Shown: positions 24,764-34,801, counted from the stretch's first letter. The stretch is DNA of 64,000 bases from Escherichia coli (GCF_044324875.1 NZ_CP172185.1); one strand, 5' to 3'. Numbers and translations: made by a program. Notes: generated by a model from the sequence alone, not told the origin.

Positions 24764-24847
24764 ATGGACAAGCAACGCGGTTTTACACTTATCGAACTGA
24801 TGGTGGTCATTAACAGTAAATTACTGTACAAATACCGCATCTGTTAA
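24764..24847 (+). pseudogene. ppdD: ppdD 5' fragment: first 15 codons of the type IV prepilin (MDKQRGFTLIELMVV) fused to 12 island-derived codons, then stop
   Basis: ATG at 24764; the N-methyl-Phe prepilin leader GFTLIELM is intact up to codon 15; frame then runs into AT-rich island DNA (INSKLLYKYRIC*). Confidence 0.75.
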
Positions 24848-25181
24848 TTCATCTCTCTCCCACAATGCCACAATCCATAACATATTGATTTTAATACATA
24901 ATGATATCAAAAGGATTTGAACCATCTTAACCATCACTTCCCATTTTTAGACCCCCTTCTACTATATTTCTCGTCAGTAGAGATCTAATGGCATCTTTTC
25001 ACCTACGCACTAATAACGTATCCTTTGCTTTCGCCAAAATGGTGGTAATCATCTTTAGAACATAGTAAAAATACTGTTGATTTCTATATAGTTCTACCTC
25101 TCCTTTAGTTGTTATTAAGATGGCAGTTTCAAATCAGGAACACATAGGTATCATGTACTAACAGCTTTATAACTTAATCAG

Positions 25182-26468
25182 GTGCTAACCATGGACTCGA
25201 AATCTCTTGTTGAACTTTCCCATGATATACAATCCGGACTAGGAAACATTGACGTTCCAGATTTTGATAACATCAAAACTATCGGAATGGCATCAATACT
25301 AGCAATGCATATACGCGGATTGGGAGAAATTGATTATGAAGTTTTAAGGAAAGTCAGTGACTTCTTTTTCAACATACCTTCATATGCTTTAAAAAGCGTA
25401 TTGGAAGTACTGGCTGAGATAGAATATGTAGATTTAATAACGAAAGACAAAAAAATATTGTCAGTAATTCCAAACGTTCCTCGATTCAAAGATCTCTATC
25501 AAGGTGTTGGTGATTATTTCACATTTAGCGATCTCAACGAACATGAGCAAGGCACATTGATAATATTATCTAATCTTCAAAACAAACCCGAAAACAGAGA
25601 CAAACTAATTCATTCTACAGGCATCGACAATACTCTTTTTTCTCGTTGTTTAGAGATTGGTGAAAAAGGTAACTATTTTAGAAATTATAGAGCTAGAGGA
25701 AAAAACATCATAGCTAGCCCATTTTATTTTGCCGATAATTTAGAGTCACTTGTCGATATTTCAGCCAAAATTGGTTCGAATGATATTGATGCTGTTTTAA
25801 AAATTATAAAAGATAATCAGGGATGGCCTCTCTCACTGATCGAATCACAATTAGAAATCGGTGGAAAAAAGCTAACAAAAGTACAAAAAGAACTTTTAAT
25901 TGGTTTTTGCCAAGAGGGTGTACTCAAACCCCCTTCAATTGATTTCGGAAACCAAAAACAAGAAACATTCATATTCACACCGAGGCCCGGAAATATAAAA
26001 TTGAATGCAGCTAACAGAGAGATTTATGAACGAGCAATGGCGTTAGTTTCTTGCGTTAGGAAAGGACAATTACTGCACGACAAATATAGAATAAGGCTTC
26101 CAGTTAGGATATTGGAATCATTAAAAGAAAAAGGTTATCTTAATCAAAATTCAGAAGCTGCATCCCAGTATAGGAATCTGGTGTTTTTGAAGGTTGGAAT
26201 GCTAAAAGCTAAGGATCATAACAAGTGGGAATTTCATTTAATAAAAACAGAAGAAAACATTGAAGCATTAGATTTAGCAATAAGTCTCTTAAAAACAGGA
26301 GAACTTGCAAATTTAGAAGTTGATCAAAATGCAAAAATAGCATTAACACAAGATGAAAAATACATTCAATCGATCATTAGCTCCGCAGAACTTAGAACTA
26401 GAGAGAAGATAAAACAAAGCGAGGAAGCAAAAGAACAATTTGAACAACTGATTTTCGAAATGGAGTAA
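25182..26468 (+). CDS. uncharacterised protein, island cargo gene A (no recognisable motif)
   Basis: 428-aa ORF from GTG at 25182; more likely ATG at 25191 (MDSKSLVELSHD...) preceded by AGGTG; AT-rich codon usage; first gene of a coupled pair. Confidence 0.6.
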   Translation: MLTMDSKSLVELSHDIQSGLGNIDVPDFDNIKTIGMASILAMHIRGLGEIDYEVLRKVSDFFFNIPSYALKSVLEVLAEIEYVDLITKDKKILSVIPNVPRFKDLYQGVGDYFTFSDLNEHEQGTLIILSNLQNKPENRDKLIHSTGIDNTLFSRCLEIGEKGNYFRNYRARGKNIIASPFYFADNLESLVDISAKIGSNDIDAVLKIIKDNQGWPLSLIESQLEIGGKKLTKVQKELLIGFCQEGVLKPPSIDFGNQKQETFIFTPRPGNIKLNAANREIYERAMALVSCVRKGQLLHDKYRIRLPVRILESLKEKGYLNQNSEAASQYRNLVFLKVGMLKAKDHNKWEFHLIKTEENIEALDLAISLLKTGELANLEVDQNAKIALTQDEKYIQSIISSAELRTREKIKQSEEAKEQFEQLIFEME

Positions 26469-32792: not shown

Positions 32793-34355
32793 TCATGATT
32801 TATTGATTAAATACTCCACCGATTTTAGGTCATCATTCTGAACTGCCATAAATTTCACATCACCAGTTTTACTATCAATTACCATTGCTTGCTTCTCATT
32901 AACACCAATATAATTCACAACTAACATAATAGCATTTCCTAAACGCTTCATTTTTATATTTTTAATAACACGTTTAATCTTCACATTAAAATTAAGTCTT
33001 AAATTAGTATTCTTAGAGTCGAGCAAATCATCAGTGCACGATTCTTTTAAATCGCTAAATTTTTCATAACCAACATTTGATTGTTTCAACCTAGTAATTT
33101 CAGTTCGTATTTCGCTAATACGACGTTGGAGGTTTTTTAGTATACGTCTATCATTAGGGTCAGGTATGTATTCCTTTTCCATGTCTGCGAGTATTTCGCT
33201 ACTATAATTTTCTTTTGTAGCTAGCTCTATTGAAAGATAGTTTATTTTAATTTGTATATCATCATCGTTTGACCTCAACATAGAAAAGTCAAAATTCCTG
33301 ATATGTTCCAATAAAGCATTTTCTATAATCTTGTATTTGAAACCTCTTTCTTTGCATTTATCAATTTTCAATAGACTCCCACCACAACGAAAGTATGTAT
33401 CACCTTTTTTATCGACAGAATTAACTTGGACATATCTGCCACAATTCATACATATGCATAATCCTGCAAATAAATTATTAGCTTTTACATTTACTTTTCC
33501 CAACGGGTTTCTCTGCTTTCGTAAATCATTTACAGTTTCAAATAATGATTGTTCAACAACCACTGGATAGATAATCATACCATCTAAAATTTTACGTCCC
33601 GTAGAATTGAATTTACCAATAAGCCTTTGATCTTTAATTATTTTAACCAAATGATTAATAGTCGGCTCACTTTCATTTATCTGCATTTTTTTCTTTTTTA
33701 GTTCATCACGGATTGCAGCAGGTCCAAATCCATCAGCATACATTTTAAAAATAAGGTTGAACTTCTCAGCCTCACCTTCTTTTATCACATACTTATTATT
33801 TTTAACTTCTATCCATGATGGCACTCGATGTGTTAAAACAGATGTTCCTTCGATAGTATTTTTTATTCTTTCATCCCAGTTTTTAATACTTAAGCGAGCT
33901 TTGCGTTTACTTTCATTATGTGCTCGCTGTAAACCTCCTGAAATAATATTCAGATCACTATATTGGTGATGTATCATTTCTGTTTCTACTTCATGAATAT
34001 CGCATCCAGCATTAATCAAGCTCAAGAATAATCCTGCGGCTCGGTTGGGTGCGGCTCTACTAAAGCGGTCTAGGTTTTCAATGACTAACACTGAATTAGT
34101 GATCTTTTTCTGTAACACATCATCTATAAAGTTTTTCAGTACAGAACCATCTTCGATATTTTTTCCGCTATATGCAGATACACCTTCGGCATACAACCAA
34201 CTAATATCCCCAAACTCATAGCCACGGTTATGTTGAGAATCATCGTATGCAGCAACGTAATCTCGCAGCATTGTTTGCTGTCTCGACATGCCATAGCCAT
34301 CTTTAGCTTGTCCTCTCGAACTGACACGAGCGTAGCAATACACCGCTTTTTTCAT
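32793..34355 (-). CDS. large serine recombinase (island integrase)
   Basis: 520-aa ORF; N-terminal resolvase domain YCYARVSSRGQ with VIENLDRFSR, Cys-rich zinc ribbon CICMNCGRY...YFRCGG, C-terminal coiled coil; 41 bp from the island/ppdD junction. Confidence 0.85.
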   Translation of the reverse strand: MKKAVYCYARVSSRGQAKDGYGMSRQQTMLRDYVAAYDDSQHNRGYEFGDISWLYAEGVSAYSGKNIEDGSVLKNFIDDVLQKKITNSVLVIENLDRFSRAAPNRAAGLFLSLINAGCDIHEVETEMIHHQYSDLNIISGGLQRAHNESKRKARLSIKNWDERIKNTIEGTSVLTHRVPSWIEVKNNKYVIKEGEAEKFNLIFKMYADGFGPAAIRDELKKKKMQINESEPTINHLVKIIKDQRLIGKFNSTGRKILDGMIIYPVVVEQSLFETVNDLRKQRNPLGKVNVKANNLFAGLCICMNCGRYVQVNSVDKKGDTYFRCGGSLLKIDKCKERGFKYKIIENALLEHIRNFDFSMLRSNDDDIQIKINYLSIELATKENYSSEILADMEKEYIPDPNDRRILKNLQRRISEIRTEITRLKQSNVGYEKFSDLKESCTDDLLDSKNTNLRLNFNVKIKRVIKNIKMKRLGNAIMLVVNYIGVNEKQAMVIDSKTGDVKFMAVQNDDLKSVEYLINKS

Positions 34356-34396
34356 TTTATTTTCCCTAAAATCATAACAGTAAAAAGCAGTATATC

Positions 34397-34801
34397 ATGG
34401 TGGTTATTGGCATCATTGCCATTTTAAGCGCCATTGGTATTCCCGCTTATCAAAACTACCTGCGCAAAGCCGCACTCACCGACATGCTACAAACCTTTGT
34501 GCCTTACCGTACCGCCGTAGAGTTGTGCGCGCTGGAACATGGTGGATTAGATACCTGCGACGGTGGCAGTAATGGCATCCCCTCGCCTACCACTACCCGC
34601 TATGTTTCAGCCATGAGTGTGGCAAAGGGCGTGGTGTCGCTGACCGGGCAAGAAAGTCTCAATGGGCTAAGCGTCGTCATGACGCCGGGTTGGGATAACG
34701 CAAACGGCGTCACCGGTTGGACGCGCAACTGCAATATTCAAAGTGACAGCGCATTGCAGCAAGCCTGCGAAGATGTCTTCCGCTTTGATGACGCCAACTA
34801 A
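34397..34801 (+). pseudogene. ppdD: ppdD 3' portion (codons 13-146) lacking the prepilin leader and its own promoter
   Basis: MVVIGIIAILSAIGIPAYQNYLRKAALTDM... matches the mature PpdD pilin from residue 13; island DNA immediately upstream. Confidence 0.75.

Follow-up and report, generated by a model that had tools for sequence, protein, structure and literature searches.

Structure of the interrupted ppdD locus

In the 64,000-nucleotide stretch of Escherichia coli DNA analysed here (GCF_044324875.1, NZ_CP172185.1; hereafter, the window), the type IV prepilin gene ppdD, known as hcpA in enterohaemorrhagic E. coli, is present in two pieces separated by an insert of 9,585 bp. The G+C content of this insert is 35.8%, compared with 52.3 and 51.6% in its 10-kb flanks. 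The 5′ fragment (24764-24811, plus strand; codons 1-16, MDKQRGFTLIELMVVI) follows nadC, which ends at 24561, and encodes the leader peptide and the first 10 residues of the mature pilin; its annotated open reading frame (ORF) extends into the insert as far as 24847. The 3′ part (34397-34801, plus strand; codons 13-146, MVVIGII...DAN), in which the frame MVVIGIIAILSAIG...DDAN resumes at 34397, has neither the leader nor the Gly-1/Phe+1 cleavage site nor Glu+5, and is followed by hofB and hofC. When 24764-24811 was joined in silico to 34409-34801, with a single repeat copy being retained, an uninterrupted 146-aa PpdD was obtained.

An initial annotation, made from the sequence alone, had described ppdD as split by an AT-rich island, and both the joined pieces and the difference in base composition (35.8% against ~52% G+C) bear this out. 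Its limits for the 3′ part (codons 13-146, 34397-34801) were correct, while the 5′ piece, given there as 15 codons (24764-24808), in fact comprises 16 codons and reaches 24811. The seven ORFs that it had counted in the insert correspond to seven intact ORFs, the serine recombinases that it had attributed to the island were verified as two proteins of 520 and 185 aa, and the leader and promoter are indeed cut off from the mature-pilin coding part, as it had stated.

In our interpretation, to which we assign a probability of about 80%, the insert is an integrated and probably still mobile 9.6-kb island of the large serine recombinase (LSR) type, with a modular build and a likely nuclease-based anti-phage cargo. 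The features of the island and its borders are collected in Table 1.

Table 1 Features of the ppdD island and its borders (window coordinates)
Feature	Coordinates	Strand	Remarks
nadC-ppdD intergenic region with native ppdD promoter	24562-24763	+	stays on the 5′ fragment, now points into the island
Predicted attL core ATGGTGGT	24800-24807		best dyad centre GT at 24803-24804
Predicted element-derived attP right arm (CATTAACAGTAAATTACTGT...)	24808-24835		kept in Enterobacter and Hafnia islands
Cargo A, 425 aa	25191-26468	+	tandem winged-helix-repeat protein, no family annotation
Cargo B, 365 aa	26474-27571	+	predicted N-terminal PD-(D/E)xK (Mrr/Cap4-like) domain and helical C-terminal domain
Terminator-like hairpin	27693-27716	+	after cargo B
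Small serine recombinase, 185 aa	27709-28266	-	resolvase/invertase type, YARVST; 94% identical in Hafnia and Enterobacter islands
res-like site	28290-28393		two dyads and a fifth half-site, directly upstream of the small recombinase gene
119-aa protein	28815-29174	-	N-terminal signal-peptide-like segment (by inspection); backbone gene, 70-100% identity in siblings
346-aa protein	29218-30258	-	hydrophobic N-terminal segments, no family match; variable backbone module
TTGATCGAT-type iteron-like repeat cluster	30488-30590		near the structured element
~500-nt conserved structured non-coding element	30724-31241	-	a 21-nt inverted repeat closes it; immediately 3′ to the P-loop gene
P-loop protein, 477 aa	31242-32675	-	weak ResIII/DEAD N-terminal similarity; phrog_2467, function not known
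LSR, 520 aa	32793-34355	-	Resolvase + Recombinase + Zn_ribbon_recom, YARVSS motif
Predicted element-derived attP left arm (ACAGTAAAAAGCAGTATATC)	34370-34396		kept in siblings
Predicted attR core ATGGTGGT	34397-34404		GT at 34400-34401
hofB (gspE-like) and hofC	34811-37388	+	island now between them and the ppdD promoter

Two comparisons had been suggested with the initial annotation, one of the empty site and one of the island itself with other genomes. In the first, a synthetic empty ppdD site aligned in one piece in 5410 of the 5426 complete E. coli genomes. In the second, the full island was found in six of these genomes, every time in ppdD, the carriers being MSI001, 94-3024 (with its duplicate deposit CFSAN002236; O104:H21), FDN-24, FDN-9 and KSC64; approximately eight further genomes are also without an uninterrupted ppdD site, which makes 14 such genomes in all. 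The MSI001 chromosome (NZ_CP076645) is 100% identical to the window over the island. Outside the six carriers, no other E. coli relative of the LSR gene was found at ≥65% nucleotide identity.

Attachment sites and the large serine recombinase

The LSR gene lies 41 bp from the right junction. Its product contains PF00239 (residues 5-125), PF07508 (195-282) and PF13408 (295-353), carries the YARVSS motif at residues 8-13 and matches the phrog_95 integrase (E = 1e-42). It has the LSR layout of an N-terminal catalytic resolvase domain with a serine nucleophile, followed by a C-terminal extension of >300 aa that holds the Recombinase and zinc-ribbon domains; of the two serine recombinases, it is the only one with an integrase architecture.

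The imperfect 12-bp direct repeat ATGGTGGT(C/T)ATT reported at the island borders in the initial annotation is present at 24800-24811 and 34397-34408, although only its 8 bp ATGGTGGT form the shared core. Native ppdD reads ATGGTGGTTATTGGC, with T at the polymorphic position, both in K-12 and in the closest empty-site relative, and the left repeat copy carries C (ATGGTGGTCATT). Because native ppdD has T there, this C is derived from the element, which places the exchange within the 8-bp ATGGTGGT. In the attP site reconstructed as the island right end, core and left end, the best dyad centre is the central GT, 13 of the 24 arm positions match, and the distal arms read ACAGTAA / TTACTGT. The predicted attP junction reads ..AAAGCAGTATATCATGGTGGTCATTAACAGTAAATTAC.. 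and the predicted repaired attB ..CTGATGGTGGTTATTGGC... These properties, that is, an 8-bp core centred on a dinucleotide, inverted arms that match imperfectly and the lack of a target duplication, fit the LSR type of attachment site, and we regard the repeat as the attL/attR core of an LSR with imperfect dyad arms rather than as a target-site duplication. According to this scheme, the attP of the element would have been recombined by the 520-aa LSR with an attB in the pilin-helix codons of ppdD, the crossover occurring in the shared ATGGTGGT, most likely at its central GT, and precise LSR-mediated excision would rebuild ppdD.

A weak sigma-70-like -35/-10 pair (ATGATA-16-TATGAT, with TG) was observed at 34371-34398 on the minus strand, upstream of the LSR gene and overlapping the attR core, so the LSR promoter may span the recombination site.

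Homologs of the LSR were detected at 88% (Enterobacter roggenkampii), 87%, 73% (E. sichuanensis), 72% (Hafnia alvei) and 43% identity, and each homolog examined, in Enterobacter, Hafnia and metagenomic enterobacteria, sits between nadC and a 5′-truncated pilin-hofB-hofC cluster. The arms ..ACAGTAA..ATATC / ATGGT / ..ATTAACAGTAAATTACTGT are conserved across the genera, with ATGGT as the minimal common core; the relative of 43% identity has other arms and the same ATGGTG. As read from these alignments, attB corresponds to the codons for the N-terminal helix, which is nearly invariant among type IV pilins (..LIEL-M-V-V-I..); this explains how a single integrase lineage can use the site in several genera. 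This LSR series, spanning 43-100% identity and provided with defined att sites, should be useful for studying and engineering target recognition by serine integrases.

The initial annotation had held that ppdD is not a commonly described integration hotspot. Indeed, no description of ppdD as an integration site was found in the literature searched, and the 41 E. coli defence hotspots listed by Hochhauser et al. do not include it; at the same time, it proved to be a recurrent, conserved target in several enterobacterial genera. We consider ppdD to be a conserved, previously undescribed attachment site.

A modular family of islands

The stretch 27715-32757 is common, at 85-97% identity, to ~78 other complete E. 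coli genomes, where it is located at other sites. It runs from the small recombinase through the genes of the 119-aa and 346-aa proteins and ~1 kb of non-coding sequence to the P-loop gene; in total, this core was found in 84 genomes. In one group of siblings, the same core is combined with a tyrosine integrase and Hachiman and is integrated at the thiamine pyrophosphate (TPP) riboswitch of thiM. One such island (L002) has a copy of the TPP riboswitch on either side (3502-3597 and 14828-14924), and therefore the tyrosine integrase duplicates the thiM leader on integration, presumably leaving thiM regulation intact. In another group, the core is accompanied by a 598-aa LSR that is 27% identical to the ppdD enzyme, with Lamassu or PDC-S60 as the cargo, and lies in yggR, the gene of a PilT-like type IV pilus ATPase. 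This element is inside the gene: homology to the empty site (L028, 1140-1192) ends 30 nt within yggR (L003, 7855-7885 and 18215-18225; also L004), so that the first ~14 codons (MNMEEIVALSVKHNV) are cut off, and the promoter is also parted from the rest of the gene. Two unrelated LSRs on one backbone are accordingly seen, in these alignments, each to sever the beginning of a gene for type IV pili, that of the major pilin (ppdD) or that of the PilT-like ATPase (yggR). Metagenomic and further genomic copies display the same combinations, along with additional integrases.

Homology within the family breaks at 27715, the 3′ end of the small recombinase gene, and at ~28400, just past the res-like site. 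In family members, cargo is found on one or both sides of the resolvase/res cassette, ~28400 being the second cargo slot. A metagenomic ppdD island from another species (L037, 264-3986) is 98.4% identical to window positions 24675-28400, which cover the ppdD 5′ region, attL, cargo A-B and the res-like site. At the protein level, its cargo A-B is 100% and its small recombinase 98% identical, compared with only 73-83% for the LSR (73%), the P-loop protein and the 119-aa protein, and the rest of the island is ~79% identical. From this mosaic of identities, it follows that the left module (cargo and resolvase) was exchanged as a unit between backbones. The resolvase may catalyse this exchange, or it may serve to resolve multimers of an excised circle. 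The comparisons thus resolve the island into three exchangeable modules: the integrase with its att arm, the backbone, and the small resolvase/res cassette flanked by one or two cargo slots. Like a defence island, it is variably present, bounded by core genes and equipped with a dedicated cargo position that holds known systems in the siblings.

The 185-aa recombinase matched the phrog_125 DNA invertase over nearly its full length (E = 7e-59) and scored 67.9 bits against the NCBIfam Mpi invertase, whose cut-off is 272, so it is not that equivalog. It fits the small serine recombinases, proteins of ~185-200 aa with a resolvase domain and a C-terminal helix-turn-helix. Upstream of its gene, two dyads, GTATCATT-N11-AATGATAC (28290-28316, 27 bp) and GTATCATT-N19-AATGATAC (28318-28352, 35 bp), are followed by a fifth half-site at 28374-28381; the half-sites read GTATC(A/G)TT. 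None of these dyads is expected by chance, and five of the nine half-site matches in the 64 kb fall in these 92 bp. No inverted pair of sites flanking an invertible segment was found, and the arrangement of half-sites resembles a putative multi-subsite res. The res subsites of gamma-delta are 28, 34 and 25 bp long. As in the Tn3/gamma-delta resolvase and res systems, putative half-site dyads of differing spacings are located immediately upstream of the recombinase's own gene here; unlike those systems, the island has no transposase, and its putative subsites, of 27 and 35 bp with a partial third, differ in order and spacing.

The backbone and its structured non-coding element

The backbone holds a very strongly conserved, structured and unannotated non-coding element of ~500 nt. 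Compared with shuffled sequences, its predicted fold has z = -7.1 on the gene strand and -5.0 on the opposite strand. The element was found in Hafnia, Pantoea, Raoultella, Enterobacter, Phytobacter and Tenebrionibacter and in 22 metagenomic contigs; on every contig that reaches far enough on that side, its neighbour is the P-loop gene, and it is ~92% conserved across seven genera, even where the P-loop protein is only 54% identical. Because its sequence is ~92% invariant, compensatory changes are few (5 of 146 predicted pairs). This conservation clearly indicates that the element is functional, and a role at the RNA level is suggested. No Rfam family matched the island or its 1-kb non-coding region. 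Degraded genes were considered for 30259-31241 and rejected, since tblastn gave no similarity to the genes for a CI-like repressor and an HTH_35 protein that replace the 346-aa module in some siblings.

The stretch that separates the structured element from the 346-aa gene contains iteron-like repeats (TTGATCGAT / ATTGAT); L037 has a weaker match to it, 76% over 101 nt. The lone remote tblastn match of the P-loop protein in phage records belongs to an Agrobacterium jumbo phage.

The P-loop protein, the ~500-nt element and the predicted secreted 119-aa protein may possibly serve replication or transfer; the P-loop gene together with the structured element and the repeats could be a rep-ori module, and a mimic of the origin of transfer may lie within 30259-31241. 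An extension of this idea is that the island depends on a helper, as a phage satellite or a mobilisable island would, and that its P-loop protein, ~500-nt element and iteron-like repeats make up a replication, packaging or transfer module. We hold this to be a serious possibility, albeit one with the odds against it. It accords with the invariable position of the element directly 3′ of the P-loop gene, with its retention at ~92% where the protein has diverged to 54%, with its far better folding than that of shuffled sequences and with the proximity of the repeats. Moreover, the CI-like S24 repressor in some siblings suggests SOS induction, and the same idea was raised by Hochhauser et al. for integrase-only islands (PMC10121019). 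On the other hand, a prophage or plasmid origin was rejected, since neither the 50,697 phage nor the 72,556 plasmid records searched matched at the nucleotide level, and the island is absent from IMG/VR. Scans with PADLOC, NCBIfam, PHROGs (all seven proteins) and Pfam (five proteins) revealed no primase, capsid, small-terminase or Psu/Sid-like matches, so the island does not classify as a phage satellite; no terminase or relaxase domains were found, and the P-loop protein gives just a weak N-terminal match to ResIII.

The cargo A-B pair and the defence systems of sibling islands

In sibling islands, the cargo slots are occupied by known defence systems, as identified by PADLOC: Lamassu (LmuA, E = 2e-169; LmuB, 9e-263), Hachiman (HamA, 1e-119), a type II-A retron (reverse transcriptase, 3e-121; NDT, 4e-85), PD-Lambda-5_B (5e-117), HEC-06 / GmrSD-like (7e-45) and PDC-S60 (1e-98). 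For the present copy, PADLOC returned no significant match for any of the seven island proteins and no recognised defence system.

Cargo B was modelled with high confidence (predicted local distance difference test, pLDDT, 88; predicted template modelling score, 0.87), and the model has an N-terminal restriction-endonuclease fold. Residues E28, D46 and D66-C67-K68 (D66-x-K68) are invariant in 40 sequences. Foldseek searches of the PDB returned the PD-(D/E)xK nucleases AF1548, Can2, MspJI, NucS and BamHI, and in AFDB50 full-length relatives annotated as Mrr-type or Cap4-like endonucleases were matched with template modelling scores of 0.7-0.95. By fold and motif, cargo B is a predicted nuclease of the PD-(D/E)xK superfamily and fits its alpha-beta-beta-beta-alpha-beta core. 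It shares its fold and D...D-x-K motif with Mrr/Cap4-like endonucleases, which belong to type IV restriction and, as the effector Cap4, to CBASS, but it is missed by the Pfam and PADLOC models and is always paired with a winged-helix-repeat partner instead of a cyclase or a modification-reading domain.

Hundreds of homologs of each protein, all annotated as "hypothetical", were found in Vibrio, Pseudomonas, Shewanella, Pantoea, Klebsiella, Nostoc, Duganella, Paracoccus and other hosts. The A and B genes are adjacent in every context examined, in Gammaproteobacteria, in the betaproteobacterium Duganella and in the cyanobacterium Nostoc, and often lie in islands bounded by integrases, insertion sequence elements or LSRs. 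Their neighbours include AAA_15/DUF3696 (Septu-like) ATPases, a reverse transcriptase, a UvrD-family helicase with an exonuclease domain, and a helicase with a methyltransferase. In Vibrio parahaemolyticus (L031, 8100-16073), A-B adjoins a different, 512-aa LSR and a 490-aa DEAD-like protein, which suggests an analogous island design outside Enterobacterales.

On the basis of its position in the slot, its distribution and its fold, A-B is most likely a candidate new nuclease-based anti-phage system, in which A would sense or target and B would cut. It is somewhat doubtful that the pair is instead a DNA-repair, regulatory or addiction module without an anti-phage function. Such a role would agree with the lack of a PADLOC match, with the placement of some copies among housekeeping genes and with the conservation of cargo A at 52-70% across phyla, which is unusual for a defence gene; yet the pair occupies the exact slot of Lamassu, Hachiman, the retron and PD-Lambda-5 in the siblings, its patchy distribution indicates horizontal transfer, the restriction-endonuclease fold retains an intact catalytic motif, and the recurrent neighbours are of the Septu-like, reverse transcriptase, helicase-methyltransferase and UvrD-family helicase/exonuclease kinds. 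Occupied hotspots with unknown cargo escape surveys built on known defence genes, and the logic of the slot (same backbone, same position, known systems in the siblings) singles out a widespread two-gene nuclease module as a candidate for defence.

Predicted consequences for the host

Since the promoter, the leader and the first 10 mature residues are severed from the rest of the gene, an assembly-competent type IV pilin cannot be made, and the carriers would be expected to have lost the pilus. The inactivation of pilus genes by the ppdD and yggR islands may matter for competence, adhesion and sensitivity to pilus-specific phages, including in Shiga toxin-producing E. coli O104:H21.

No terminator-like site was detected in the DNA leading from the ppdD 5′ fragment to cargo A, and the attL-side cargo is co-oriented with ppdD in all the loci examined; read-through from the ppdD promoter into cargo A-B is a possibility. 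A promoter scan gave 25 consensus sites, against 35 in shuffled sequence, and therefore no promoter was assigned, apart from the weak match overlapping attR.

These relations can be carried further in two ways. The broader proposal is that the islands form an unrecognised enterobacterial class of mini-islands, whose serine integrases have become specialists for the 5′-terminal parts of genes for type IV pili and competence (ppdD and, in a sibling, yggR) and which act as reversible switches that do away with the pilus and DNA uptake, with defence cargo under a captured Sxy/CRP-S promoter, a new A-B system and a new ~500-nt element needed for replication or transfer; in this full form, we regard the proposal as unlikely. 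A narrower version, in which the ppdD insertion itself is a reversible switch resembling active lysogeny, shutting off the pilus and DNA uptake and placing the cargo under the Sxy/CRP-S ppdD promoter, also appears distinctly unlikely to us. Its attractions are that excision would restore ppdD exactly, the core geometry predicting a scarless event, that the second, 27% identical LSR on the same backbone severs the first ~14 codons of yggR, that the co-oriented cargo is not separated from ppdD by a terminator-like site, and that ppdD, with its CRP-S promoter, is induced ~90-fold by Sxy (PMC1635313). Against this, just two pilus-gene targets are known in the family, the thiM-site relatives spare pilus genes, and conserved, rarely expressed genes may simply be safe landing sites.

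Spread and probable mobility of the island

In the four carriers compared, there is 100% identity over the cargo (island positions 1-2900) and over the LSR (7950-9585), and the 2-67 differences among the islands all occur in patches within the shared core. At the same time, the 1.5-kb chromosomal right flank differs at up to 22 positions (~1-1.5%); between FDN-24 and KSC64, for example, 2 of 9587 island positions differ against 16 of 1500 flank positions. The identity of the cargo and LSR in diverged backgrounds is evidence for horizontal spread of the island. Across the six-genome island, the differences cluster at 27996-32331 (island positions 3185-7520), in the backbone common to the thiM- and yggR-site siblings, and their patchiness suggests gene conversion between sibling islands.

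Several results weigh against a mobile island with an anti-phage cargo. The six E. coli carriers share identical junctions, and because of this, spread within E. coli alone may have proceeded by flanking homologous recombination. The attP junction of an excised circle was not found in the metagenome collections or IMG/VR. In the domain scans described above, no relaxase or type IV secretion system domain and no recombination directionality factor was recognised, and no capsid or packaging genes were found among the island proteins. By these scans, the island does not classify as an integrative mobilisable or conjugative element. As to the cargo, neither A nor B matched anything in PADLOC, Pfam, NCBIfam, PHROGs or PDB sequences, structure prediction being informative for B alone; the model of A, a winged-helix chain of moderate confidence (pLDDT 73), gave only generic tandem winged-helix matches without a specific structural relative; and in some genomes (Shewanella) A-B lies among housekeeping genes.

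The junctions, the missing attP junction in the public assemblies searched and the lack of recognised directionality-factor and transfer genes would also suit an immobile remnant that was inserted once, has been inherited or moved only by homologous recombination of its flanks, and no longer excises. We judge this quite improbable: all seven ORFs are intact, both recombinases retain their catalytic serine motifs, the cargo and LSR are 100% identical though the flanks differ by 1-1.5%, and in other genera this site is held by orthologous LSRs that come with different cargo, which requires repeated site-specific integration. The evidence favours the integrated LSR island, and its present mobility appears probable. 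A transposon that left a 12-bp target-site duplication, as the imperfect direct repeat at the ends might intimate, is practically ruled out by the element-derived C/T mismatch, the dyad-symmetric attP with its serine integrase, which fit site-specific recombination, the identical position in every host, and the absence of a DDE transposase and of transposon-type terminal inverted repeats.

Comparison with known systems

LSR elements residing within host genes include the Listeria prophages A118/phi10403S in comK, Bacillus subtilis SPbeta in spsM and the skin element in sigK, all of them prophages, or what remains of prophages, whose regulated excision has been demonstrated. The ppdD island resembles them in its integration into an ORF and in the precise excision that would rebuild the gene, and comK is likewise a competence gene; it differs in being a 9.6-kb element without phage genes. 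SCCmec, which employs the LSRs CcrA/CcrB, integrates at the 3′ end of rlmH, leaves that gene functional and carries resistance cargo. It is also a non-phage, non-conjugative cargo island that depends on LSRs and one conserved chromosomal site, whereas the ppdD island inactivates its target gene, and its LSR has only weak similarity to NCBIfam CcrB (24.5 bits against a cut-off of 900).

The closest counterparts are the "integrase-only" islands of Hochhauser, Millman and Sorek 2023 (PMC10121019), which are likewise small, carry recombinases without other recognised mobility genes, hold variable defence cargo at a dedicated position and occur in a minority of strains. Because its cargo is not a known system, ppdD is missing from the 41 hotspots of that survey. 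At hotspot #6 (yggS-yggR), the islands carry the backbone of the window at 85-94% nucleotide identity; yggS and yggR were given there as flanking genes, and the present analysis places the insertion inside the 5′ end of yggR. The ppdD island is an LSR-borne representative of this integrase-only type of defence island.

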